Assembly: GCA_013202715.1 (NCBI GenBank)
Contig: JABMRF010000018.1
Span: 14,641-78,640, forward strand
DNA: 64,000 bases
Reading direction: 5' to 3'
Source: Candidatus Kuenenbacteria bacterium
Lineage (GTDB): Bacteria > Patescibacteriota > Patescibacteriia > UBA11705 > JABHMO01
Numbering within the stretch: the stretch's first letter is position 1; the number at the start of each line of letters is the position of its first letter. Below are positions 2,723 to 61,807 of the stretch, piece after piece. Both the position numbers and the translations under genes were made by a program. The notes beneath the pieces were generated by a model. That model was not told the origin of the DNA and did no database searches. It worked only from the letters and a program-made list of their open reading frames with translations.

Positions 2723-3243
2723 ACGCTTGGTATGCACTCGCAATTGCCTTTGGGGCGACGGGACTTTTTTTTCTCGTTTTTTATCTTTTTAGCAGCAAAC
2801 CCAATCCCATGCGAAACACAATGAAATGGATCACTATCGGCCTTCTTACGATGGCTTTCGGAATGGCGATTGCTGGAGTCCTTTGCAATGCAGAGACAAA
2901 GCAAATCGAAAATGAGCAGCAAAATGTGCCCGTAGAAAATGAGTGCCTGAAGTTTATTGGTGATCTGCGAATCAATGGCACGCAAGGAAAAATTGTTCTT
3001 GAAAATGAGAGTGATGAAGCTCTAGGCAAAATTGAAGTTGCCCGCGATGCCGGTTTTGTTGGCGGAACTGCGCCAACCGGTCTGAATTCCTCAAAACATC
3101 TGGTCATGTTTGGCTACATGCCGGGCAAAAACCTGTATATTGTGTCAGCGCCCTATTCAGAAGAGAGCAGGGTTTACACGATCTGGCACAACGGACAGCA
3201 TCGGGCAATGGACTTAAGTAAATGTCCGCGTGACCACCTCTGA
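2719..3243 (+). CDS. membrane-anchored paralog-array protein
   Basis: RBS ggagg before the ATG at 2719. N-terminal TM helices. The C-terminal ..NECLKFIGDLRINGTQ.. domain is paralogous to 3357..3806. Confidence 0.5.
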   Translation: MNAWYALAIAFGATGLFFLVFYLFSSKPNPMRNTMKWITIGLLTMAFGMAIAGVLCNAETKQIENEQQNVPVENECLKFIGDLRINGTQGKIVLENESDEALGKIEVARDAGFVGGTAPTGLNSSKHLVMFGYMPGKNLYIVSAPYSEESRVYTIWHNGQHRAMDLSKCPRDHL

Positions 3244-3247
3244 TTTA

Positions 3248-3290
3248 TAACCAAAATCCCACCCCGCATCGCGGAGAGGGATTTTTTATT
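3248..3290 (+). terminator. intrinsic terminator (cassette copy 2)
   Basis: Sequence aaaatcccaccccgcatcgcggagagggatttttt. Confidence 0.6.
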
Positions 3291-3356
3291 TAATTTTAGC
3301 CAATAACTTCAGCCAGCCCTTGACAAATCAATTCTACGATGATACTATAAGGAGTA

Positions 3357-5371: not shown

Positions 5372-5680
5372 TTAGTTCTCTCTTATCTCAGCATTTGTTG
5401 TGACAGTCTGTTTTACCTCAAAAGGTTTTTTTATTGATTGTTTGATCTGTTCCGCTTCAACATTATCGTTAACAATAATTTTTTCAGCAGTAATGCTCAC
5501 AATCTGACTTGGTGAAACTAAAAGCACCTGCCCCTTGGTTAAAAGTTTTCGACGCACAACCAGATATTTCATAACGCTGTGGTTTTCGATATCCAGCTCA
5601 AAATCGTCAATATTGCCAAGAAGCAAACCTGATTCAGTCTCAACAGAAAGGTCGCGTAGTTTTTTAAAGTTAATTTTCAT
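5372..5680 (-). CDS. PRC-barrel domain protein
   Basis: 102 aa. The pattern ..LLGNIDDFELD..G.V..LVV.. is typical of PRC barrel proteins of the YlmC/YmxH type. Confidence 0.45.
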   Translation of the reverse strand: MKINFKKLRDLSVETESGLLLGNIDDFELDIENHSVMKYLVVRRKLLTKGQVLLVSPSQIVSITAEKIIVNDNVEAEQIKQSIKKPFEVKQTVTTNAEIREN

Positions 5681-5684
5681 ATTA

Positions 5685-5730
5685 GGCGCGGATTAAACGG
5701 ATCTAACGCGGATTACGCGGAATCTTATAG
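5685..5730. repeat. family A word-repeat element (cgcggat words), half copy
   Basis: Sequence gcgcggattaaacggatctaacgcggattacgcggaa. Confidence 0.6.
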
Positions 5731-5747
5731 AATACTGCATTAATGTT

Positions 5748-6656
5748 TTAATGTTTTAATGTTTTAATGTCTTCTTCTTTATTACTGTCAGTATTTTCAA
5801 CAATTTGTTTTGGTTCTTCAGGTGTTTCTGGCTCGATAACTTCTGCTTTTTCGCCCTTTGGACCCATGCCCTCCGGTGGAATGACTTCGACTCCGGTTGG
5901 ATCCTTTTTTCTAAACATTAACTTTTGCTGAGCTGAAGTAAAGACAGTTGTCAAAAACCAATAGAAGGTCAGACCACCCGGCAGGCTCATCCCAATTAGA
6001 ACTGTCATAAACGGCATAAAATACTGCATGCTCTTGTTCATGTTGGCCATGATGCCCTCATCCTTCGCTCCCTTTACATTCGGCTGCTTTTTGCTCATAA
6101 GCATGCGGGTCTGAACATACTGAGCCAAACCTGCCAATATCGCAAGAGCGATACTCGGAGCAGCAAAATCCATAAAACCAAAAGCCATTGTATTGATATG
6201 CTCTGGGTTATGAACAAAAGAATAGAGCATGTCAAACTTCTGTGAAGTTAAACCAACTCTAAACGCCTGATAAACAGCAATCAAAAACGGAAACTGGATC
6301 AAGAGAGGTAAACATGAAGAAAGCGGATTAACTTTTTGCTCTTTGTAAAGCTTCATTGTTTCCGCCGCAAGTTTTTCTTTTTCATCTTTGTATTTCTTTT
6401 TCAATGCATCCATTTTGGGTTGCAATTCCTGCAGTGCTTTTTGGGAACGAACCGCTTGCAGACTCAACGGCAAAAGAATTAGTTTAACAACAATAGTTAA
6501 CAAAATAATTGCCAAACCAATATCATTATAGGGAACAATATTATAAAGCCAAACTAACAAATTAAAAATTGGCTCGTAAAGAATTGTATTGTATAACTCC
6601 ATCATATAGGGCGCGGAGAGAACGGATCTAACGCGGATATTGCGGATGGACATCAA
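5748..6656 (-). CDS. yidC: membrane protein insertase YidC
   Basis: YidC/Oxa1 core sequence ..IVVKLILLPLSLQAVRSQKALQELQPKMDALKKKY..NPLSSCLPLLIQFPFLIAVYQ.. The true start is probably near 6605 (MMELYN). The annotated N-terminus reads through a family A repeat at 6609-6648. Confidence 0.85.
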   Translation of the reverse strand: MMSIRNIRVRSVLSAPYMMELYNTILYEPIFNLLVWLYNIVPYNDIGLAIILLTIVVKLILLPLSLQAVRSQKALQELQPKMDALKKKYKDEKEKLAAETMKLYKEQKVNPLSSCLPLLIQFPFLIAVYQAFRVGLTSQKFDMLYSFVHNPEHINTMAFGFMDFAAPSIALAILAGLAQYVQTRMLMSKKQPNVKGAKDEGIMANMNKSMQYFMPFMTVLIGMSLPGGLTFYWFLTTVFTSAQQKLMFRKKDPTGVEVIPPEGMGPKGEKAEVIEPETPEEPKQIVENTDSNKEEDIKTLKH

Positions 6657-6711
6657 AAAGCCCTTACCGAAATCAACGTATAATATGCACTAACCACGTA
6701 ATTTTTATTTT

Positions 6712-8187
6712 TTATTTCTCGGCCTTTTCTTTATCATCAGCTTTTTTAGTTTTTTTTGCAGTTTTCTTTTTCGGTTTCTCTTCTGTTTCTTCGTCTTCTT
6801 TGTCTTCTTTATTGGTCTTAGTTTTTTTCACGGTCTTTTTGGCAACCTTTTTCTTTTTTTCCTTTTTTTCTTCTTTGGTGCCTTCTTCTACAACTTTTTC
6901 TTCACTCTCTGCCTTTTCTACCTTTCCACCATCTTTAGCTTCCGATCCCTCAACCTCTTTTCCAGTATCTTGATCCTTGATACTAATTTTCCAGCCGGTT
7001 AATTTTGAAGCCAAGCGAACATTTTGTCCTGCTCGACCGATTGTGAGTGACAACTGATCAAGAGGGACAATGACAGTCGCTGTTTTTTCTTCTTCATTAG
7101 TTTCAACCTTAGTAATTTTTGCCGGCAAAAGAGAATTGGCAATAAATTTTGCTGGATCATCATCATATTCTATAATATCAATCTTTTCTCCACCAAGCTC
7201 ATTGATAATGGTTTGAATTCTAGCACCACGCTGACCAATACAAGACCCAATAGGATCAATATTTTCGTCCTCGGTATGAACAGCGATTTTGGTTCTGCTT
7301 CCGGCCTCACGAGAAATACCCTTGATTACAATTGTACCGTTGGAAATTTCTGGAATTTCCAGCGTAAATAAATTTTCTACGATTGCCGGATGAGCGCGAG
7401 AAACAATAATTTCCGGACCACGCGTTGTGAGTGTAACACTTACCAAGTAAACTTTTACGCGCGCACCAACCTTGTGCCGTTCGTTCCGTATTTGTTCACT
7501 TGGAGGAAGAATCGCTGCAAATTTTTCCAGATCAATAATAATATTTGGTCCGTCAAATTTTTGTACCATACCGGTCAAAATTTCTCCTTCTCTTTCTTTG
7601 TATTCCAGATAAATCACATTGCGCTCGGCTTCGCGAAGACGCTGAATAATAACCTGTTTAGCAGTTTGTGCCGCCATTCGGCCAAATTCGCCAGGAATTT
7701 CCAAAGCCGTTTTCACAAAATCACCAATCTTGTATGATTTTTTTATTGCTTTCGCATCTACCTCCTGAATTTCTGTTCGCGGGTTGAAATGCCTTTTTTC
7801 TTCTTCGTCTTCTGCTCCCTCCTCTTTTGGTGCTTCAGATTCTCTTGCCGCTCGAAGCTCTTCATCTTTTTCCTCACGAATTCTCTTTAGTTCCTCAGCG
7901 GTAATTTCACCGCTAGCAATTTTTTCTTTTATCTCTTCTCTTTCTTTTCGAATTTTTTCTAGCTCCTCCAATTCTTCCGGAGTCAAATCCTCTACAACTT
8001 CTTTTAAATCAAAAACCTTTGTACCGCTGGTTTCCAAATCAAATTCAGCAACAACGTTTTGAGTTTTGTCGCCAAAATCTTTTCGATAAGCTGCCGCTAG
8101 TGCGGAATTAATTGTTTCCAAAACATCCTCTTCAGACAATCCCTTTTCTGCACAAATTTGTTTAATCACTTGTTTGATATTATCCAT
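6712..8187 (-). CDS. nusA: transcription termination/antitermination factor NusA
   Basis: N-terminal NusA domain, S1 domain and two KH domains are recognisable. An acidic insertion (EELEELEKIRKEREE...) and a long K/E-rich C-terminal tail are present. Confidence 0.9.
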   Translation of the reverse strand: MDNIKQVIKQICAEKGLSEEDVLETINSALAAAYRKDFGDKTQNVVAEFDLETSGTKVFDLKEVVEDLTPEELEELEKIRKEREEIKEKIASGEITAEELKRIREEKDEELRAARESEAPKEEGAEDEEEKRHFNPRTEIQEVDAKAIKKSYKIGDFVKTALEIPGEFGRMAAQTAKQVIIQRLREAERNVIYLEYKEREGEILTGMVQKFDGPNIIIDLEKFAAILPPSEQIRNERHKVGARVKVYLVSVTLTTRGPEIIVSRAHPAIVENLFTLEIPEISNGTIVIKGISREAGSRTKIAVHTEDENIDPIGSCIGQRGARIQTIINELGGEKIDIIEYDDDPAKFIANSLLPAKITKVETNEEEKTATVIVPLDQLSLTIGRAGQNVRLASKLTGWKISIKDQDTGKEVEGSEAKDGGKVEKAESEEKVVEEGTKEEKKEKKKKVAKKTVKKTKTNKEDKEDEETEEKPKKKTAKKTKKADDKEKAEK

Positions 8188-8334
8188 ATTAATTGAGTAC
8201 AGATAAATACTGCTTATTTTTATCAGTATACCTGTACGATAAGTATTAATTTGCTCCTAAAAAATGCTAGTTTAATTATCATAAACTAGCTTGCTTTGAC
8301 TATAGCATGTTTTATGAAACGTGTCAAAATTTAA

Positions 8335-8670: not shown

Positions 8671-9204
8671 ATGAATCAACATTACGAGTTGACCTACATT
8701 GTGTCAATCAAATACATTGAAGATGATCTGCAAAAGGTCATCAAGTCTGTTAATGAAGTAATTGCAAAAGCAAACGGTGAGATTACAAAAGAAACTGACC
8801 TTGGGAAACAGCGACTTGCTTATCCAATCGACCATGCTCATCAGGGAACTTATATTTCTCTTGAGTTTGATATGGAACAGGAAAAACTGCAAGAAACAAA
8901 TACTCTATTGAGATTAATGCCGGAACTACTACGACATTTGATTATTAAAAAGAAAGTTCAAACAGAAGCTGAAATCAAAAAGCAAGAAGATATTCAGGAA
9001 AAAATTAGAAAAGGAAAACAAGAAGAGCTAAAAAAACTTGAAAATGAAACTGAAGTCGGAATAAAAGCAACTGAACCTATCAAAAAGTCAGCTGACGAAA
9101 CCAAGCCAGTTGTAACCAAGAAAGAAAAACCGGCAAAAGAAAAGGTTACCTTGGAGGACTTGGACAAAAAGTTAGATGAAATTTTATCAGACGACATACT
9201 TTAA
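8671..9204 (+). CDS. rpsF: 30S ribosomal protein S6 with a K/E-rich C-terminal extension
   Basis: The ..ELTYIV...........V..........G.I...........LAYPI.....G.Y.. pattern of bS6 is present. Conserved rpsF-ssb-rpsR gene order. Confidence 0.85.
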   Translation: MNQHYELTYIVSIKYIEDDLQKVIKSVNEVIAKANGEITKETDLGKQRLAYPIDHAHQGTYISLEFDMEQEKLQETNTLLRLMPELLRHLIIKKKVQTEAEIKKQEDIQEKIRKGKQEELKKLENETEVGIKATEPIKKSADETKPVVTKKEKPAKEKVTLEDLDKKLDEILSDDIL

Positions 9205-9316: not shown

Positions 9317-9820
9317 ATGGATTTAAACAAAGCAATGCTAATCGGTCGCTTGACTCGCGATCCGGAGGGAAGAACAACACCACAAGGAACTACTGTCGCT
9401 TCATTTTCAGTAGCTACCAACTTTGTGTGGGTTGACGCAAACGGACAAAAACAAGAAAAAGTTGAATATCACAATATCGTTGCCTGGAGAAAATTGGCTG
9501 ACATTTGTACCCAGTACTTGAAAAAAGGAAGCAAGGTCTACATCGAGGGGCGACTACAAACTCGAGATTGGGAAGGCCAAGATGGTGTAAAGCGTTACAG
9601 AACGGAAGTCGTAGCAGACAACATGATCATGCTCGACAGCAAGCCACGAAGTGATTCTTCTGGTTCTGGATACAACCAGGCTCCACCTCCACAGGCAGAA
9701 GCACAACCTGTAATCCAGGTTGATCAATCACCTGTAGAAGGTACTGAGATTCCTGAGGCAAATGCTCCTACTACTAGTGGTAGTGACGATGAAATTAAAG
9801 TTGAAAACATTCCTTTTTAA
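9317..9820 (+). CDS. ssb: single-stranded DNA-binding protein
   Basis: N-terminus MLIGRLTRDPE..R.T..G...A.FS.A.N, an OB fold, a Gly/Pro-rich linker and an acidic C-terminal tail DDEIKVENIPF. Confidence 0.9.
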   Translation: MDLNKAMLIGRLTRDPEGRTTPQGTTVASFSVATNFVWVDANGQKQEKVEYHNIVAWRKLADICTQYLKKGSKVYIEGRLQTRDWEGQDGVKRYRTEVVADNMIMLDSKPRSDSSGSGYNQAPPPQAEAQPVIQVDQSPVEGTEIPEANAPTTSGSDDEIKVENIPF

Positions 9821-9927
9821 ATAAACGCGGATCCACACGGATCAAACGCGGATAATGCGGACCTAAGAAAAAACTTCTTAGTAAATTCCGTTCAATCCGC
9901 GTTATATCCGCTTAATCCGCGCCCCCT
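9821..9927. repeat. family A word-repeat element, full imperfect palindrome
   Basis: Left arm aaacgcggatccacacggatcaaacgcggataatgcgga, right arm ccgttcaatccgcgttatatccgcttaatccgcg. Confidence 0.65.
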
Positions 9928-10164: not shown

Positions 10165-10262
10165 TATTTTGTAATACATGATCTACATGATTTACTACTG
10201 ATCTACGTGACGTATGTAACTTTTTATCAGTAGATCATGTAGAAAATCAGTAGATCAAGTAT
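10165..10262. repeat. family B word-repeat element (gatctac/cagtag)
   Basis: Contains atacatgatctacatgatttactactgatctacgtgac...tcagtagatcatgtagaaaatcagtagatcaag. Confidence 0.6.
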
Positions 10263-11204: not shown

Positions 11205-11247
11205 AACAACCCAAAACAACACCCGCATCCGAGTGTTGTTTTTTAGT
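11205..11247 (+). terminator. intrinsic terminator (aacaacac...gtgttgtt family)
   Basis: Sequence aaaacaacacccgcatccgagtgttgtttttt. The same family recurs at 11575-11612, 12513-12548 and 14255-14292. Confidence 0.6.
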
Positions 11248-11574: not shown

Positions 11575-11612
11575 CCAAAACAACACCCGCATCGAGTGTT
11601 GTTTTTTTGTCG
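11575..11612 (+). terminator. intrinsic terminator
   Basis: Sequence aaaacaacacccgcatcgagtgttgttttttt. Confidence 0.6.
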
Positions 11613-12485: not shown

Positions 12486-12569
12486 CCTTAGCACCAAGCT
12501 TAGATTAAACAATTACAAAACAACACCCGCATCCGGAGTGTTGTTTTTTAATTGAACTAAATTATTTTA

Positions 12570-14254: not shown

Positions 14255-14292
14255 AAAAACAACACCCGCATCCGGAGTGTTGTTTTTTATTA
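14255..14292. terminator. bidirectional intrinsic terminator
   Basis: Sequence aaaacaacacccgcatccggagtgttgtttttt. Confidence 0.6.
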
Positions 14293-16624: not shown

Positions 16625-16629
16625 AGTAA

Positions 16630-16736
16630 TCGCGGATAAAGCGGATCTAACGCGGATAATTCGGACTGCGTTGATTAAAATAACTCACATAATCAATGCA
16701 CTCCGTTATATCCGCATATAATCCGTAAAATCCGCG
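16630..16736. repeat. family A word-repeat element, full palindrome with about 40 nt spacer
   Basis: Left arm cgcggataaagcggatctaacgcggataattcgga, right arm ccgttatatccgcatataatccgtaaaatccgcg. Confidence 0.65.
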
Positions 16737-19169
16737 TCAATAAATTTCGTCTTCAGTACTAGTTCTTTTTTTCTTTTTTGGACTTTCGTCTACTTCTTCT
16801 TCCTCATCCTCCTCGTCTTCTTCATATTCTTCATCTTCTACTTCTTCTTCTGTCTCGTCATCTTCCGCCTCATCATCCTCTGCCTCTTCTTCATTTTCCT
16901 CATCATCTTCCTCGTATTCTTCTTCTGTATTTTCGTCTTCGTATTCTTCTTCATCATCCTCTTCTTCGTCATCTTCCTGTACAGCTTCTTGGCTATGATC
17001 AAATGATTCTTGTTGCGCCATTGCATTAACTTTGTCAACCAAAATCTCACGCGGACGTGCGCCATCTGCTGGTCCGACTATTCCGGCGTCTTCCAATAGG
17101 TCAATCAAACGAGCTGCTCGCGCATATCCAACCCTCAGCCTCCGCTGAAGAAGAGAGGCAGATGCTTTGCCGGCTTGAATAACCAACTGTTTTGCTTCAT
17201 TAAATAAATCATCTTCCCCGCCTCCCTTGAAATCAAAGCTGGTTGACCCGGAACTACTCGGCTTGCTGGTCACGTCATCTAAATATTGTTCTTGACCTCC
17301 AGAGGCCTTTTTCAGAAAATCAACAACCTTTTTGATTTCATTATCACTGACAAAGGCGCCTTGCAATCGACGTGGCTTTGCAGTTTGCGGAGTCATAAAC
17401 AAGCAATCACCTTTTCCAACTAATTTTTCTGCACCTGAAGAATCAAGAATTGTTCTCGAGTCCATCAAAGAGGCTACACTAAACGCCACTCGACATGGAA
17501 TATTTGCTTTGATAAGTCCTGTAATAACATCTACTGACGGCCTCTGTGTTGCTACAACCATATGAATGCCCACAGCTCGCGCCATCTGAGTCAAGCGAAT
17601 AATGCATCCTTCAACTTCTGCCGCGGCGGCAACCATCAAGTCCGCTAATTCGTCAATTATTATTACAATGTAAGGCATTTTTTCTTTGGCCGTTAGATTG
17701 TAACTGGCGATATTTCGTTTCTTGGCTTTAGCAAGTGTGTCAAAGCGAGAATCCATTTCACTGATTGCCCAGCGCAGAGAATAAACCGTTTTTGTTACAT
17801 CAGTAATAACCGGGGTTAATAAGTGAGGAATTCCGTTATAAACAGGAAACTCCACCCTCTTCGGATCAACTAAAATAAATCGCAGGTTATCAGGATTGTT
17901 CTGATACAACAAACTCATGATTATTGCATTTAAACAAACACTCTTACCGGATCCAGTAGCACCGGCAACTAACATGTGAGGCATTGATGATAAATCCTCT
18001 ATCCAGCATTTTCCACTAACATCTTTTCCTAGAGCAACCGACAAATTTGTTTTTCTGTTTTTAAATGTCTTGGTCTGCAGGGTTTCTCTAATGCGAACTA
18101 CGGCAGGTTTCTGATTCGGAACTTCGATTCCAACCAATGACTTTCCTGGAATCGGCGCTTCAATTCTAATCGGATGAGCCGCAAGAGCCAAAGCCAAATC
18201 ATTTCCAAGTGTTGTAATTTTTGAAAGCTTGATTCCTTCTGCCGGCTTCAAGGTGTATTGTGTAACTGTAGGGCCGACCTGGACTGCGCCCATTTCTACA
18301 TCGATATTAAAATTTGCCAATGTTCTGTGAATTCTCTCTGAGCCGACCTTGATATCTCCGCTGGTTGGTTTTGAGCGTTTATCATCAAGAAGACTGAGAG
18401 GTAAATCAATTTTAATTTTTGGCGCTATAATTTTTGACTTCCCCTCTGGCTGACCCCTAGACACGAGGGTACTGGAAGAGACTTTGACATCGCGCACTCG
18501 CGTTGGACTTTCATCCTCGTATTCTTCCTCGTCTTCCTCCTCTTCATATTCCTCCTCGTCATCTTCTTCATCACCATCTTCCATTTCTTTTTTTCTAAAA
18601 CCAAGCCCCCTGAAATCAAATGCATTGGTTTTTTCTAATATTGATTCAAAGCTGGTATTAAACATTAACAAAAATCCCGCAACCAAAAGTCCGATTAAAA
18701 TAATCAAGCTTGCCCAGAATCCCAAATATAACATTAACGGATAATTAACAAGATAACCAATAATTCCGCCTCCCATACCACTAAAAGTTAATTCAAATGA
18801 ATTTGAAAAAGGAATTCTTGAATGAAGTAGACCTTGAAGTCCGATTACAAATAAAAAAATACCAATATAGTTAGGTATTGAAATATCATAACGACTTGGC
18901 CGGGCCAAAACATAACTAAGCAAAACTAAAAACAGAGGGATTAAGTATCTTCCCCAGCCAAAAACAATTCCGAGCGCGTAATCAATATATGTTCCCGCTG
19001 TTCCAGCTAGGCTCAAAAAACTTAAAATGCTAATTATAGAAATTGTAAAAAGTAGAATTACAATAATCCCTTTTTTTGTTTCTGGACTCAGGCTGTAATA
19101 TTCTACATCTTGATAACGGCGTCGCCGCTTTTTTCGTCTTCCCACATTATTTAAAAATGCAAATACCAA
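16737..19169 (-). CDS. ftsK: DNA translocase FtsK/SpoIIIE
   Basis: N-terminal TM domain, motor with Walker A GATGSGKSV and a gamma (winged-helix) domain ..LLQRRLRVGYARAARLIDLLE.. A poly-acidic linker and a long D/E-rich tail follow the gamma domain. Confidence 0.9.
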   Translation of the reverse strand: MVFAFLNNVGRRKKRRRRYQDVEYYSLSPETKKGIIVILLFTISIISILSFLSLAGTAGTYIDYALGIVFGWGRYLIPLFLVLLSYVLARPSRYDISIPNYIGIFLFVIGLQGLLHSRIPFSNSFELTFSGMGGGIIGYLVNYPLMLYLGFWASLIILIGLLVAGFLLMFNTSFESILEKTNAFDFRGLGFRKKEMEDGDEEDDEEEYEEEEDEEEYEDESPTRVRDVKVSSSTLVSRGQPEGKSKIIAPKIKIDLPLSLLDDKRSKPTSGDIKVGSERIHRTLANFNIDVEMGAVQVGPTVTQYTLKPAEGIKLSKITTLGNDLALALAAHPIRIEAPIPGKSLVGIEVPNQKPAVVRIRETLQTKTFKNRKTNLSVALGKDVSGKCWIEDLSSMPHMLVAGATGSGKSVCLNAIIMSLLYQNNPDNLRFILVDPKRVEFPVYNGIPHLLTPVITDVTKTVYSLRWAISEMDSRFDTLAKAKKRNIASYNLTAKEKMPYIVIIIDELADLMVAAAAEVEGCIIRLTQMARAVGIHMVVATQRPSVDVITGLIKANIPCRVAFSVASLMDSRTILDSSGAEKLVGKGDCLFMTPQTAKPRRLQGAFVSDNEIKKVVDFLKKASGGQEQYLDDVTSKPSSSGSTSFDFKGGGEDDLFNEAKQLVIQAGKASASLLQRRLRVGYARAARLIDLLEDAGIVGPADGARPREILVDKVNAMAQQESFDHSQEAVQEDDEEEDDEEEYEDENTEEEYEEDDEENEEEAEDDEAEDDETEEEVEDEEYEEDEEDEEEEVDESPKKKKRTSTEDEIY

Positions 19170-19377: not shown

Positions 19378-19420
19378 TCCGCTTCAATCCGCGTTAGATC
19401 CGCTTTATCCGCATTTATTT
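19378..19420. repeat. family A word repeat (right-arm type)
   Basis: Sequence gtccgcttcaatccgcgttagatccgctttatccgc. Confidence 0.55.
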
Positions 19421-19429
19421 AAAAAAAAG

Positions 19430-19921
19430 GGAAGCAGTTCACACGGAACGGCTCCCTTTAGTTTTCTGGGAAGTCTTCGAAAACTCCCCAAACGAGTAGA
19501 CAAATGTTCTGTAGCAAGTTGAAAGATCAATTTGTATAGGACAGAGTCCTATTTGCTACGGAACGAGGAGAGAGGGGTCCCCTTAGGGTTGTCTACTCAT
19601 TTGGATAGTTTAGTTGAGTTTAGTTTAGTTTAGTTGTAATTTAACTCCCAATAAACTGATGAGGGTGGCGTACGAGCTCTAAATATAAATTGTAGCCCAG
19701 CCTCTCTCCTCATCAATTTGTTAAGAATTAAGAATGAACAACTTACCAGCAAGATGATGAAGAGGATAATAAGGTAGCATTGAGGGCAATAAGAAAAATA
19801 TCTCCCTGTAGACTGCCTTGGTGTTGATGATAGACTCACCAGTTAAATGGGGAAAACCCCAAAGAACTAGTTAAAATCTCTCTCCTCTTTCATCATTTTG
19901 ATGGTAAATTTTGAGGTATTT
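19430..19921 (-). ncRNA. candidate large structured ncRNA, about 490 nt, identity unknown
   Basis: A minus-strand promoter TTGACA(19958-19953)-17-TATAAT(19935-19930) reads into an ORF-free stretch. A hairpin plus T8 terminator (rc of 19425-19460) closes it. Long-range complementary segments are visible (gatgaagaggagag / cctcttcatc). Confidence 0.4.
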
Positions 19922-20040
19922 AATATTGCATTATAGCACATATATTAAATATTGTCAATACCCACCGACTCCTAATCAATATTTTAGCTAAATTTAGAAC
20001 CAAAAACATGCTATTATTCGCTAACAACGTTCAGGTCCAG

Positions 20041-24025: not shown

Positions 24026-24616
24026 TTACTTGACTATCTGAACTGTCACTCGATGCTGGCTGTACATGTACATTTCGTCAGCACAACTGTCAACTTCCCA
24101 TTTATTACCGTCAATCCAAACTAAGCACATATGATTAAATGACAAGTAGATGATAATGCAATCACTACAGTCAGGCTCCTGTAAAACTGTTCGCGATGTA
24201 ACTGAAGCTGAAATAATATCATTTCTTTCGCCCCGCAATCCCCATCCAGGCAACTGAAAACGAACTGAATCACCTTCTTTTGGAATCTGCGGCATGTCAG
24301 CGCAGGGATCAGGAATTTTATCTTCCAGAACCGGCAAATTGGGTCCGTCTGGTGATTTGATTTCTCTCTCACCAAGAAACACCTTGACTTCGTGATTATA
24401 ATGATCCATAAAGCGCCACTCACCCAGATGCGAAACCCAGGTCAACACCAGCTCACAACTAACCGTCAGAGCAGGATCCCCATAGGGATTGATGAACACT
24501 TTCTCAACATAATCCAAGCTACCACGACCAATCGGTTCACTCCCGCGATTAAAACTCTGCCATCTAATTTCCTCTCCAGGGCTAGGAAACCAATCCGGAG
24601 TCTGTTTGTCAGTCAT
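24026..24616 (-). CDS. hypothetical protein, member of a tandem paralog pair (higher GC)
   Basis: N-terminus MTDKQTPDWFPSPGEEIRW matches MIDKQIPDWFPNEGDEVAF of 24613..24960. Local GC is clearly above that of the surroundings. Confidence 0.5.
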   Translation of the reverse strand: MTDKQTPDWFPSPGEEIRWQSFNRGSEPIGRGSLDYVEKVFINPYGDPALTVSCELVLTWVSHLGEWRFMDHYNHEVKVFLGEREIKSPDGPNLPVLEDKIPDPCADMPQIPKEGDSVRFQLPGWGLRGERNDIISASVTSRTVLQEPDCSDCIIIYLSFNHMCLVWIDGNKWEVDSCADEMYMYSQHRVTVQIVK

Positions 24617-24960
24617 GATTTACCTCCGGCAGCACCTTCAGGATTTGGATCTAACCAAAGTTCCTGTTTCTGAATTAGATACAACCGGGATATTTCTGTT
24701 TGCTCAAGAATTCGGACAGGTTCCCCTGAAAGAAGATCTGACGCAACAGAACCGGTAACAAATGAGAGCTTTTTACTTTCAAGGCAGTATACAAGCGCAT
24801 ACGATGTGTAACCCGCCATAAGAGCCCTGACTTCATTATTCACAATGGCTACTTTTCCAATTTTCACCACGCGCATACTCCCGATGCATCCCAAGCTTAA
24901 TCTGAATGCAACCTCATCCCCTTCATTGGGAAACCAATCCGGAATCTGTTTGTCTATCAT
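24613..24960 (-). CDS. hypothetical protein, tandem paralog of 24026..24616
   Basis: Shares its N-terminal 20 aa with the downstream gene. Overlaps it by ATGA. Confidence 0.5.
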   Translation of the reverse strand: MIDKQIPDWFPNEGDEVAFRLSLGCIGSMRVVKIGKVAIVNNEVRALMAGYTSYALVYCLESKKLSFVTGSVASDLLSGEPVRILEQTEISRLYLIQKQELWLDPNPEGAAGGKS

Positions 24961-28447: not shown

Positions 28448-28828
28448 ATGAAATGGAACGATCAAAAAAGGGCAGAAGCTATTATCGAAAGATTGGAACA
28501 TCTTCCGCAAGCATGTGGATTTTTTCTGCGTCAAGGTTATTTTTTAGTTTCTTACTCTAGAGTGGCTGAAACAGTTCCTGTTCCCATTCTACTTTATGAG
28601 AGACTTTGTCGATTTGAAACCAGAACGGGCGCCTTGTGGCAAAATCTACAAAAACTTCTCGCAAAGCATTTTAATAATGAAATTTTAATAAAAGATAAAG
28701 ATTTTGACACCGTTACAATAACCATTTGCGGAGACGGAGAAGTTCTTTACGAACGACCAGCGACTCTGCATGAGGAGCAAAAGTTGAATATCAATTTCCG
28801 TAAACTGCAAACGCCGGTAAATCTCTAA
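28448..28828 (+). CDS. hypothetical protein
   Basis: First of three co-oriented unknown ORFs that end at a terminator at 29835-29875. Confidence 0.45.
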   Translation: MKWNDQKRAEAIIERLEHLPQACGFFLRQGYFLVSYSRVAETVPVPILLYERLCRFETRTGALWQNLQKLLAKHFNNEILIKDKDFDTVTITICGDGEVLYERPATLHEEQKLNINFRKLQTPVNL

Positions 28829-28837
28829 GGAGGGGCC

Positions 28838-29242
28838 ATGCATCACATGACACCACAACAACAACAAACATGGAACGATGCACGACGTGCAGCCTTTATC
28901 ACATTAAAAGTTAGAGCAAAGGCTGCAGCACAGAAATTCTTCAGTCAGGGACAAGTCTTTGATCTGAAAATTTATGAAAAAACGCTAGGAGACAATATAC
29001 CCTCCGTAAGCAGATCTTATGTAATAGAAAGTAGTTCAGAAAATTTCTGGACCGCTCTGGAAAAGGAACTCACGATACTGTTCAATGAAGTTCCTGGTTA
29101 CGCGAAAAATTTTTGCCTGATTCCTTTTCAGATTTTACTCAATGGACGAACGGTCCACAACTATCTCCCTCGGCCAACAACCAGCAGAAACAAGGTTTTA
29201 TGCATTTCCTTTTCAAGGGCAACAAAACCAAGGTCTTTGTAG
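28838..29242 (+). CDS. hypothetical protein
   Basis: RBS ggagggg before ATG. Confidence 0.45.
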   Translation: MHHMTPQQQQTWNDARRAAFITLKVRAKAAAQKFFSQGQVFDLKIYEKTLGDNIPSVSRSYVIESSSENFWTALEKELTILFNEVPGYAKNFCLIPFQILLNGRTVHNYLPRPTTSRNKVLCISFSRATKPRSL

Positions 29243-29371
29243 CAAACCACGCCGTCCTGATACAGGACGGTTTTTGTTTTACTATTGACGGTCACGCGTA
29301 TTACTGCTATACTAGAAAAATCGTCCAATAAACAATTGGATTGATCGTCATCTTCAAACACAGGAGGAACC

Positions 29372-29830
29372 ATGGAAGCAACCCCACGGCAAGTTGAAGA
29401 TTTGTTTGACAATGGCTTCGAAGAAGCCATGAAAACCATTGGCAGGAATTTTCTGACTGATCCGAAAATTCAAGTCTGGCTCAAAAAAATGAAGCATTTT
29501 CACTTCACCGTTTCCGGTAGAATCAACCGCCCAAAACGGCTTGAAATTACTGCTAAGAAATCCAACATTTTCCATGTTGAAGATACTGAAAATGAAAGTA
29601 CCATTTACAAGTTTGCTTTATGCCTGGCAAAATTTCTGGAAGACCTGGAAGTCAAGCCAGGGTTCAACGACTTGTGTTTCATTCAAACTAGGTCCTCCGC
29701 TACCAGCCTGATTTACTACACAAACAGAGAGAGAAATCGACGTAGCTTGATGGAAATGAACTCTGCTGCTGCCATCAATGACGCCCATCTGACTATCGCC
29801 ATTGCTCCTGATGAAATTCTGGAGCTGTAG
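29372..29830 (+). CDS. hypothetical protein
   Basis: RBS aggagga before ATG. Terminator aaagcccgctcatcgctgtgagcggggcttttttt follows. Confidence 0.45.
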   Translation: MEATPRQVEDLFDNGFEEAMKTIGRNFLTDPKIQVWLKKMKHFHFTVSGRINRPKRLEITAKKSNIFHVEDTENESTIYKFALCLAKFLEDLEVKPGFNDLCFIQTRSSATSLIYYTNRERNRRSLMEMNSAAAINDAHLTIAIAPDEILEL

Positions 29831-35180: not shown

Positions 35181-35444
35181 TTCCATCTCTCAACTTCGTT
35201 CGAGATGTTCCACGTGGAACATTTCAGTTGTAATATATAAGATAAAAGGGAAAAGTATTGGTAAATTAGAGAACCTTAAGTGTCGTAAAATATTTGTTAT
35301 TACCCGTTTTTCTTCAATAACCAAATAATAGGTGAACAATTTCACCTATCAAGGACCCATTATCTATGTCGGCAATTCGTTACTTTTCCTCTTTTTTTCT
35401 GTTGCTTTTTTATAGCAACTTTTCTTTTTTTATTCATAGTGAAG

Positions 35445-35480
35445 ACGCGGATCCAGCGGATCAAACGCGGATTAAGCGAA
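35445..35480. repeat. family A word repeat (left-arm type)
   Basis: Sequence acgcggatccagcggatcaaacgcggattaagcgaa. Confidence 0.55.
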
Positions 35481-35554
35481 TTAATAAAATAGTTAAATGG
35501 CTTGCCATGAAGTTATGCGAATTCGAACAAAGTGAGAAATGAGCATATACTTCA

Positions 35555-61084: not shown

Positions 61085-61180
61085 AACGGTACGGATTACA
61101 GATTGCTACAGATGTACAGATTCATAACTATAACCTTAAATCCGTACATCCGTATTTGATCCGTAATCTGTAAATCTATG
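61085..61180. repeat. family C palindromic word repeat (tacagat/atctgta, atccgta/tacggat)
   Basis: Left arm ggtacggattacagattgctacagatgtacagatt, right arm aaatccgtacatccgtatttgatccgtaatctgtaaatct. Confidence 0.6.
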
Positions 61181-61807
61181 AAACATTACATTGCTATCGC
61201 GGGAAATATCGGCGCAGGAAAAACTGTCATTTCAAAAAAGTTGGCTAAACATTTTGATTGGCAACTATATCAGGAACCATTTCAGGAAAATCCATACTTG
61301 CGTGATTATTATAATGATATGACAAAATGGGCATTTAAATGCGAAATGTTCTTTCTCGGAAGACGCCTGCAAGATCACCTAGAAATACTTGAAAGTGCTA
61401 ATGTCACGATTCAAGACCGCTGTATTTACGAAGGTGCAGAAATTTTTGTTAAAAATCTGTATTTGAACGGCCATTTAGCTGAAACTGACTGGCAAAATTA
61501 CAATAACCTATATCAATCTATTAAAAAAACAATTACTCCACCGGATTTAATCGTCTATGTAAAATCTTCAACTGATCGTTGTCTGAAAAATATAAATAAA
61601 AGAAACCGCAACGTGGAATTTCATATGAGCTCAGACTATATCGCCAACTTGAACAAGCTTTACGAAGAATGGATCAAAAGCTTTGATCTTTGTCCGATTT
61701 TAATTGCAGATGCTGACAATAATGAATTCAAGTATGTCGAAAACGATTTTGTAAATTTAGCAAACCAGATTCAAGATAGTTTGGAAAAACAAATTACCAA
61801 ACAATAG
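61178..61807 (+). CDS. deoxynucleoside kinase (dCK/dGK family)
   Basis: P-loop IAIAGNIGAGKT. Contains the ..F.E.....R..YL.. and DR pattern of the dNK family. Confidence 0.7.
   Translation: MKHYIAIAGNIGAGKTVISKKLAKHFDWQLYQEPFQENPYLRDYYNDMTKWAFKCEMFFLGRRLQDHLEILESANVTIQDRCIYEGAEIFVKNLYLNGHLAETDWQNYNNLYQSIKKTITPPDLIVYVKSSTDRCLKNINKRNRNVEFHMSSDYIANLNKLYEEWIKSFDLCPILIADADNNEFKYVENDFVNLANQIQDSLEKQITKQ

Follow-up and report, generated by a model that had tools for sequence, protein, structure and literature searches.

Palindromic repeats that lie between genes and also in frame within unrelated housekeeping genes, where the peptide that they encode, conserved and hydrophilic, lies in surface loops, are known as RPEs, the palindromic elements of Rickettsia (PMC10969869). 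MITEs, or miniature inverted-repeat transposable elements, lie in 3' untranslated regions or within operons without breaking these (PMC10969869), and a terminal GTAG/CGTC tag is a criterion for repetitive extragenic palindromic (REP) sequences (PMC3733652). Here we describe Family A, a set of elements built from CGCGGAT-type words in a stretch of 64,000 nucleotides (hereafter the window) from Candidatus Kuenenbacteria, a bacterium of the candidate phyla radiation (CPR). Its copies were inserted into spacers that had formerly been tiny, and inverted pairs of them have the potential to form hairpins. The best explanation, to which we assign a probability of about 0.58, is that they are repeats akin to REPs and RPEs, short, rich in GC and non-autonomous, i. 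e. selfish DNA, mobile now or formerly, which is transcribed and whose paired copies bridge a stop and a start codon. The family is REP/RPE-like in its working and is not a member of any described family.

A cluster scan for CGGA-type words yielded eight arms of about 40 nt in the window. Each arm consists of four words with a CGGAT core at spacings of 9/10, 11 and 9 nt, and between the words only 3-4 nt vary. The alignment gave the consensus nCGCGGATnaArCGGATCtAACGCGGATwwwnCGGAn, with CGGATC-W-AACGCGGAT as the best-kept core. A profile made from the arms recovered exactly the same eight (E = 4e-12 to 1e-8) and, in addition, one degenerate arm at 61138-61166. Five of the eight carry CGCGGAT on the + strand (5684-5726, 6610-6650, 9824-9865, 16629-16669 and 35444-35483) and three on the - strand (9881-9923, 16697-16738 and, as delimited by the profile, 19379-19414). 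They are arranged as two inverted pairs and four single arms, accompanied by decayed relatives, and a single arm seems to be a unit by itself. The window contains CGCGGAT 14 times where 2.9 occurrences are expected, and none of 100 shuffles reached this number. A pairwise identity matrix of the arms, aimed at within-genome homogenisation, was used only qualitatively because short overlaps make its values unreliable.

All eight arms are intergenic and were found 0-21 nt from a stop or start codon; no copy inside a gene was found in the window. The two inverted pairs fill the space between a stop and the following start codon. In full copy C, the 5' arm (9824-9865, + strand; E 1.6e-9) begins 5 nt after the ssb stop codon (9818-9820), the centre (9866-9880) holds a mini-hairpin and loop, CCTAAGAAAAAACTTCTTAG, and the 3' arm (9881-9923, - strand; E 1.8e-11), which shows ATCCGCG words on the + strand, stops 6 nt short of the rpsR ATG (9928). 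Full copy D lies between ftsK and an HTH_25/RodZ-like gene. On the sense (-) strand its stop-side arm (16697-16738, - strand; E 1.1e-8) begins right at the ftsK stop codon (TGA, 16737-16739), and between the sense end of its start-side arm (16629-16669, + strand; E 1.4e-11) and the ATG of the HTH_25/RodZ-like gene (16624) there are 6 nt. Each of the pairs at 9821-9927 and 16630-16736 gives, whichever strand is folded, a long hairpin with interruptions at -44 to -53 kcal/mol (z = -7 to -9); the stems begin 0-8 nt past the stop and reach to within 6-9 nt of the start. Lone arms folded no better than shuffles; the palindromy arises from the inverted pairs only.

Among the single arms, arm A (5684-5726, + strand; four words; E 4e-12) lies 21 nt past the yidC stop codon and 6 nt before the ATG (5680) of a PRC-barrel gene, and the sense (-) strand reads ATCCGCG. 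It has no partner arm, and its spacer folded no better than shuffles. Arm B (6610-6650, + strand; E 8e-10) ends on the sense (-) strand in CCGCG-N6-ATG and adjoins the true yidC start (6605/6602). It is overlapped by a spurious open reading frame (ORF) with a TTG start (5748-6656). A decayed partner of arm B follows the nusA stop codon (6663-6700, - strand), with the words ACGTGGTT, GTGCATAT, ACGTTGAT and TTCGGTAA on the - strand; together the two fold at -25.3 kcal/mol on the sense strand versus -15.2 kcal/mol on the antisense strand. Arm E (19379-19418, - strand; E 7.7e-9) has the CGCGGAT orientation on the - strand and lies directly past the hairpin (~19428-19462) that terminates a conserved non-coding transcript; from there it is about 210 nt to ftsK, which lies downstream. 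Arm F (35444-35483, + strand; E 8e-11) is situated between two tRNA genes. On the - strand it precedes by 8 nt an ATG that opens merely an 18-codon, Lys/Arg-rich candidate ORF, MNKKRKVAIKKQQKKRGK (35385-35438). The degenerate arm G (61138-61171, - strand; E 0.1), whose + strand reads ATCCGTAC/ATCCGTAT/GATCCGTA/ATCTGTAA, ends 6 nt before the ATG of the gene at 61178-61807 and thus keeps the word-N6-ATG spacing of other arms.

Two further relatives had not been listed in the original prediction, an earlier reading of the same DNA. A hairpin of TACATGATC and TACTGATC words and their complements spans the rpsR-efp junction from stop to start (10175-10261); it has the appearance of an older, AT-shifted relative of Family A. 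A decayed hairpin of the GTACAGAT ... ATCTGTAC type lies in the nusA 5' leader (8196-8238). As for the six loci that the original prediction did name, an element is present at every one of them. Their placement at gene boundaries was borne out and turned out to be sharper than claimed: read in the sense of the flanking gene, four of the arms end in CCGCG-N6-ATG (before the starts at 5680, 6605, 9928 and 16624) and the arm before 35438 in N8-ATG, and two arms start 5 and 0 nt past the ssb and ftsK stop codons, respectively. The higher GC content of the elements was likewise reproduced (51% in the arms versus 38% in the window). The N-terminal extension of YidC had rightly been called false, since its 17 residues, MMSIRNIRVRSVLSAPY, are missing from all five syntenic YidC orthologues, which start at M18 of the window's version; thus the element affects annotation, the JGI gene call included. 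Half copies had been said to occur alone. Single arms do exist, but the supposed half copy at 6610-6650 is the one with the decayed partner at about 6663-6700.

An SSB identical to the window's is assigned by NCBI to Candidatus Kuenenbacteria, and JGI metagenome contigs match the window. The junctions were compared with those of seven related CPR loci (designated by L numbers) that have kept the gene order groEL ... Wzy-X-PRC-yidC-nusA and rpsF-ssb-rpsR-efp ... recA-HTH-ftsK ... clpP, HTH being the helix-turn-helix gene. The spacer between ftsK and the HTH gene measures 2-20 nt in the relatives versus 112 nt in the window, with the exception of L175, where it has 139 nt and bears a hairpin of its own. 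Between yidC and the PRC gene there are 1-30 nt in most relatives versus 67 nt in the window, and between ssb and rpsR 5 nt in L171 versus 107 nt. Because the same junctions are tight in the relatives (mostly 2-20 nt), the elements of the window are insertions or expansions of about 45-110 nt. Before the insertion these junctions were probably translationally coupled.

Whether relatives carry elements at orthologous positions had been left by the original prediction as a check. The ssb-rpsR junction is occupied in six genomes, namely that of the window and those of L169, L172, L170, L173 and L174, and all six share one architecture, a tandem-word hairpin that reaches from the stop codon to a few nt before the ATG. 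The words differ. They are CGCGGAT/ATCCGCG in the window, TGCGGAT/ATCTGTAC in L169 and L172, ACAAGAT/ATCTGTAT in L170 and L173, and ACTGAT and ACGTGAT with ATCTGTAC and ATCCGTA in L174, whose element also contains the TACATGATC-type words of the window's rpsR-efp hairpin. The variants form a series of G-C, G.U and A-U pairs. The words of L169 and L172 pair only as G.U on the sense RNA, and accordingly the L169 copies fold on the sense strand only (-28.9 and -31.1 versus -13.3 and -11.3 kcal/mol on the antisense strand). At the position of the decayed partner of arm B, L169 holds a full copy. A third L169 copy, intact and again of the TGCGGAT/ATCTGTAC type, has the same polarity and lies 5 nt before the nusA ATG; the hairpin at 8196-8238 is its decayed orthologue in the window. 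The sense strand folded better in 12 of 16 stop-to-start spacers. In a symmetric count over 21 hairpins, wobble mismatches of the sense type numbered 57 and those of the antisense type 42, and for this reason we regard the RNA-level signal as real in one lineage and not as general.

At other junctions of the clade hairpins are made of unrelated words (TACAAAT, TAATTA, TAGAAA, CAAGCGAGA) with periods of 7-11 nt, so that helical phasing is not kept among them. Thus tandem-word hairpins are a general habit of the clade.

Outside the clade, we searched metagenome contigs for exact matches to a 21-base pattern, GCGGAT-N4/5-CGGATC-N-AACGCGGAT. It was found in 45 contigs with 24-70% GC, where chance would give about one match (a rough estimate from the 21 specified bases). 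Most of these contigs also have the fourth word and many an inverted partner arm. At positions left free by the pattern, C precedes GCGGAT in 93% of the copies and CG precedes the second word in about two thirds. In a Pseudoxanthomonas contig, identified by its Rep helicase cluster, the array lies between two genuine REPs of the GTAG type. Further hosts are one metagenome-assembled genome of Gammaproteobacteria, two Planctomycetota, one member of Terriglobia, one of Pyrinomonadaceae, a Bacteroidota contig (assigned by Por_Secre_tail), Parcubacteria and a low-GC thermophile with reverse gyrase. An earlier scan of a genome collection with a 15-base pattern gave mostly chance matches; five real multi-word copies were recovered from it. 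The original prediction had called the family specific to its lineage. This did not hold: the 21-base pattern, together with extra words and partner arms, occurs in the 45 metagenome contigs and in named genomes of Gammaproteobacteria, Planctomycetota and Acidobacteriota, and close relatives carry different word variants at the same junctions.

In ten cases outside the CPR clade an arm that reads CGCGGAT lies 0-42 nt past the stop codon of a Pfam-confirmed gene (L128, L163, L145, L151, twice in L155, L167, L154, L164 and L135), whereas the opposite orientation was seen in one clear case (gltX in L149) and one ambiguous case. The stop codon is often supplied by the element itself, as TAG/TAA in the flank TTAGCC or, in L135, as GGATAG.

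Some of the loci outside the window contain further repeats. In L011 (Planctomycetaceae; 3180-3300) another long hairpin, made of different words (CACAGAG / CTCTGTG), comes after the CGCGGAT array, so tandem-word hairpins are not confined to the CPR. In L134 (1-400) whole elements with CGCGGAT words on the 5' side and ATCAGCG words on the 3' side form a tandem array, about 116 nt per repeat, resembling a cluster of bacterial interspersed mosaic elements (BIMEs). A perfect 22-nt tandem repeat, (GACGCGGATCCAGGCGGATCC)n, was caught by the search pattern in L143 (1487-1670) and L166 (508-691), in contigs of 57-59% GC; it looks like a different, simple tandem array.

Copies of Family A words also occur in frame within Pfam-confirmed genes, as single arms in GatB and ThrRS (L153), UvrC (L158) and a PGM/PMM enzyme (L159/L162) and as full palindromes in a class II FBA (L127) and a Mur ligase (L162). 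In-frame reading is possible because the word spacings of 10 and 11 nt add up to 21 nt, i. e. seven codons. The array inside genes is always translated as A-D-x-R-G-S-N-A-D-x-R-G (ADxRGSNADxRG), and all single arms within genes have the CGCGGAT orientation. By this, the essential proteins GatB, ThrRS and UvrC are lengthened by 14-40 residues. Against the solved GatB structure of T. maritima (3AL0_B), the GatB copy is a clean loop insertion, and a second, degenerate copy makes another insertion. The insert is present at the same loop in 9 of the 120 closest homologues, which are from Parcubacteria. The carriers are not a clade, and their nearest neighbours, 83-91% identical, lack the insert. 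Comparison of the DNA of a filled site with that of an empty one, the flanks being 90% identical, showed about 80-90 extra nt in frame at the filled site and no clean target-site duplication; the lineage with the filled site has a word variant of its own, CGCGGAC/GTCCGCG. Ribosomal bypassing of the T4 gene 60 type was dropped as an account of these copies: the frame stays open, and hence they are simply translated.

No gene or carrier could be linked to the elements. All-against-all BLAST of the 122 ORFs that flank the elements in the 45 loci showed no recurrent family and therefore no linked transposase. Plasmids in PLSDB and viral contigs in IMG/VR gave no match to the element, and no parent insertion sequence (IS) with matching ends was seen in the 45 loci, the plasmid collection or the viral contigs. 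Rfam at the gathering threshold found only tRNAs in the window, and in E-value mode for 11 loci only miRNA-hairpin models of a generic kind with scores well under the threshold. The peptide encoded by the element, used in a protein word-index search, returned one candidate only and nothing usable. In the literature searched, exact 16-mers of the element turned up no paper, 'CGCGGATC' brought up only BamHI-tailed primers, and we found none that treats REP or MITE elements of Patescibacteria.

How, then, does the family relate to the described ones? With the REPs, BIMEs and REPINs of Proteobacteria it shares that it is short, GC-rich, non-coding and multi-copy, that it lies between genes of co-directional or convergent orientation in regions that are presumably transcribed, often a few nt from stop codons, and that it occurs singly or as inverted hairpin doublets. 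REPs are extragenic, within transcription units and near the 3' ends of genes, and all eight arms of the window agree with this in being intergenic and 0-21 nt from a stop or start codon; elsewhere copies can be intragenic. The original prediction of a REP/BIME-like family at gene boundaries is thus well founded, as the elements are multi-copy, GC-rich and intergenic, are palindromes on the transcribed strand and were inserted into once-tiny spacers. However, a REP unit is a palindrome of 20-40 bp that folds alone, whereas the arm described here is a direct array of four 7-nt words. None of the arms has the GTAG tag, and GACG stands next to the outer word in only two of eight (16697-16738 and 35444-35483). 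No gene for a REP-associated tyrosine transposase (RAYT) was found in the 45 loci examined, and REP families are confined to the genus level, whereas the CGCGGAT array occurs in at least five phyla. Its position between two genuine GTAG REPs in Pseudoxanthomonas shows that the array is distinct from REP.

Among known kinds, RPEs appear to be the closest in behaviour. Outside the window, Family A likewise forms in-frame inserts in unrelated ORFs that encode a conserved peptide at tolerated sites, and for neither is a mobilising enzyme known. RPEs differ in being about 100-150 bp long and restricted to Rickettsia, whereas the elements described here have 40-110 nt, a word period of 21 nt (seven codons) and hosts in many phyla. 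The likeness is one of behaviour, drawn from the description of RPEs and not from the sequences of RPE-1 to -10, and the hosts belong to unrelated taxa. MITEs (Correia/CREE, ERIC, Chunjie, QMITE) are similar in being non-autonomous, shorter than 500 bp and bounded by inverted ends, with transcripts that form hairpins; correspondingly, full copies of Family A have 107-112 nt, inverted arms of 40 nt and no transposase gene inside. They differ from MITEs, which are AT-rich, in being GC-rich and in the absence of a target-site duplication and, in the 45 loci, plasmids and viral contigs, of a parent IS. Since the marks of REPs (palindromic unit, tag) and of MITEs (target-site duplication, parent IS) are absent and no sequence tie to RPEs is claimed, we place the family outside the named ones.

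Looser resemblances exist to two other groups of repeats. Mycobacterial interspersed repetitive units (MIRUs) are intercistronic operon repeats that touch the neighbouring stop and start codons and are thought to preserve translational coupling; they are, however, direct tandem units of 40-100 bp with small ORFs and without hairpins. The short tandemly repeated repetitive (STRR) sequences of cyanobacteria are intergenic and have 7-nt tandem words as well, but are simple arrays found in heterocystous cyanobacteria only. Neither MIRUs nor STRRs are known to share sequence with the CGCGGAT family.

Selfish palindromic DNA ranks first among the explanations because Family A is multi-copy and non-coding, was inserted into tiny spacers, occurs in unrelated contexts, survives in frame in protein loops and was gained or lost between near-identical homologues. 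The probable course of events is the following. Arms of about 40 nt made of CGCGGAT-type words were inserted into intercistronic spacers and leaders, either singly or as inverted pairs, and the same unit has landed in unrelated places in many phyla, just past stop codons or in frame in the loops of housekeeping proteins. The copies would be transcribed with their operons. In the transcript, paired copies would fold into long interrupted hairpins, the base of which would bring the upstream stop and the downstream start within a few nt of each other. In this Shine-Dalgarno-poor genome such closeness would preserve termination-reinitiation coupling, or the hairpin would serve processing or stability. 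The coupling-preserving geometry is probably the reason why only such insertions survive at operon junctions. If so, stop-hairpin-start provides a concrete model in which insertions are tolerated by the streamlined operons of the CPR or even put to use in translational coupling or mRNA processing. Small palindromic repeats such as REPs, MITEs and RPEs are normally genus-specific, and the CGCGGAT module would be an unusually widespread example. With no linked transposase and no phage or plasmid as carrier, this spread points to a copying mechanism not yet known or to a universal constraint on the sequence.

Several observations weigh against selfish DNA. The copy counts cover only the 64 kb of the window. 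The single arms at 5684-5726 and 35444-35483 cannot form a bridging hairpin. No direct repeats flank the copies of the window when these are compared with the empty orthologous spacers; because of this and of the lack of a transposase or RAYT gene near the elements in the 45 loci, mobility, present or former, is something that we infer and have not demonstrated. The same junctions are filled across relatives whose SSB proteins are 65-76% identical, and neither these repeated hits at the same junctions and loops nor the sharing of one word variant by the copies of a genome is explained. The words are kept across phyla, more than decaying junk normally shows, and also inside GatB over about 60% protein identity. 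To this are added the orientation bias after stop codons in other phyla (10 versus 1-2 cases) and the sense-strand wobble excess, which is weak and comes mostly from one lineage.

Some of these observations leave room for the elements being primarily functional RNA, i. e. processing sites of the RNase III type, stabilisers of 3' ends or hairpins for termination-initiation coupling. Cleavage at the base of the hairpin could then make near-leaderless mRNAs, and the shared words would reflect a trans-acting factor instead of mobility. The filling of the same junctions in several diverged genomes and the compensatory G-C, G.U and A-U series of the arms argue for such a role. So do the three L169 copies, which without exception have GCGGAU in the 5' arm and AUCUGU in the 3' arm of the sense strand and fold only there, the greater stability of the sense strand in most spacers, the constant CCGCG-N6-ATG spacing of four arms in the window, and the hairpin 5 nt before nusA, the first gene of its operon. 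Many genes moreover lack a Shine-Dalgarno sequence and some promoters are at leaderless distance from the ATG. Yet partnerless single arms are common both in the window and elsewhere, and copies in coding sequence and next to unrelated genes of other phyla fit operon-specific signals poorly. L171 copes with its 5-nt ssb-rpsR spacer, the wobble asymmetry is weak overall, and no Rfam family matched the window or the 11 loci. We therefore consider a primary RNA function possible but rather unlikely.

In a different proposal the arm core GGATC-W-AACGCG would be a cis-acting pause signal that stalls RNA polymerase about 25-30 nt past the stop codon when in the CGCGGAT orientation. The consensus of the elemental pause is G-11 G-10 N6 T-3 G-2 Y-1 G+1 on the non-template strand (PMC6062546) and has been described as conserved from bacteria to mammals (PMC6336406). 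The core agrees with it at five of six positions and the L169 variant GGATCATTTGCG at all six, but the likeness is one of sequence alone. Each of the eight arms of the window has GG-N6-YGYG exactly once in the CGCGGAT orientation and never in reverse, and in GC-rich versions words 1 and 2 could form a small hairpin that ends at -10/-11. The prevailing sense orientation past stops outside the CPR clade and the uniform orientation of single arms in genes point the same way, and as that consensus holds universally, many phyla could have retained these words or evolved them anew. The array might even be a pan-bacterial, orientation-dependent cis-signal that is kept by a universal machine and holds RNA polymerase at gene ends, operon junctions and hairpin-bridged stop/start pairs. 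If true, this would explain the identical words from CPR to Gammaproteobacteria, Planctomycetota and Acidobacteria, the dominant orientation past stops and the integrity of the words in GatB over deep divergence. But the consensus is of low information. The window has 47 matches where 47.4 are expected, and one match per GC-rich 40-mer is only mildly surprising. Besides, the single arms A, F and G are oriented opposite to their flanking genes, the 9-nt word spacings do not suit the consensus, and the orientation bias is also explicable by the reading frames and stop codons that the element offers. We judge a pause signal to be improbable and are just as sceptical of the pan-bacterial cis-signal. 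The original prediction had offered a protein-binding array as an alternative, which here would mean DNA sites where an oligomerising protein (e. g. a winged-helix response regulator or a nucleoid, partition or iteron-type protein) reads YRCRGAT along a single face of the DNA. The four direct words, on average about 10 bp apart, the occurrence of arms as inverted pairs and the retention of Y-R-C-R-G-A-T in the word variants of different genomes would suit such a protein. This reading found no support, however, and is the weakest option, one that we think very improbable. The copies abut start or stop codons or lie in ORFs and are not at promoter or origin distance, the related word families with periods of 7-11 nt do not keep helical phase, the two arms of L169 carry different words that match only as RNA, no regulator gene is linked in the 45 loci, and PLSDB has no matching plasmid.

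Further identities were considered and discarded. TIGR arrays, which have 36-nt units with two variable spacers of 8-12 nt and lie beside a Tas gene with a Nop domain in CPR and phages (PMC12045711), resemble Family A as short-period tandem arrays with dyad symmetry in CPR genomes (PMC12045711). They are out as an identity, given the period of 9-11 nt, the lack of variable spacers and the neighbourhood of yidC, nusA, ssb, rpsR, ftsK and the HTH gene without Tas. DnaA boxes were dropped because the copies are scattered and TTATCCGCG is unlike TTATCCACA at two key positions. The GGA of CsrA sites is lost in word variants and missing from the reverse arms. A mimic of the T-loop or tRNA T-arm (CGCG-UUCGAUC-CGCG) would lie on the wrong strand, and the CPR copies do not conserve it. 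Pairing to the 3' end of 16S rRNA or to the 530 loop is partial only and of the wrong sense. Integron attC sites, plasmid iterons and end repeats of the Tn7/Mu type were also dropped.

The region around arm E contains the conserved non-coding transcript mentioned above, of about 470 nt, between ftsK and clpP (19430-19960, - strand). It has a perfect promoter, TTGACA-17-TGcTATAAT (19958-19930), and ends in the terminator hairpin at ~19428-19462. Blocks of it are kept in L170, L171 and L173: GAGGAGAGAG, AAATTGATGrGGAGAGAGGCTGGGC, CCCCCCTCATCA and AAATGAGTAGACA. No Rfam match and no tmRNA call were obtained for it. It may be a divergent housekeeping RNA, as the GAGGAGAGAGGCUGGGC block recalls CR-I of RNase P. 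In the nusA leader (8188-8330, - strand), a strong promoter-like site, TTGACA-17-TATAGT (8327-8299), is followed by a terminator-like hairpin with U-run (8266-8290), which is kept in L169, and by the decayed word hairpin abutting the ATG. The leader may be an attenuator.

A second repeat family on the - strand comprises four hairpins that are almost the same, AAAACAACACTC(C)GGATGCGGGTGTTGTTTT, each lying between a run of A and a run of T (11213-11242, 11577-11605, 12517-12547 and 14255-14287). They look like (bidirectional) intrinsic terminators that are reused at several gene ends. The 9-mer AAGCGAGAC forms arrays of about four copies each at 267-305 and 1201-1239 inside a Wzy_C-type ORF; L174 has such arrays at the same places (311-344 and 1253-1281), and the same word builds the nusA-yidC intergenic element of L171. 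A perfect tandem 8-mer, TTAATGTT, repeated 3.9 times at 5740-5770, is the 3' end of yidC and codes on the - strand for ..IKTLKH.

Throughout the window most genes lack a Shine-Dalgarno sequence, and several -10 boxes are at leaderless distance from the ATG (e. g. 22660 and 44472). Strong AGGAGG sites are a minority (24026-24960, 28448-29830, 30445, 42369 and 49062); the genes that have them may mark a block of different origin. Finally, FtsK (16737-19169) contains long Asp/Glu-rich inserts and a Glu-rich tail, and NusA (6712-8187) and ribosomal protein S6 (8671-9204) have long Lys/Glu-rich C-terminal tails, all of which are also present in the relatives.

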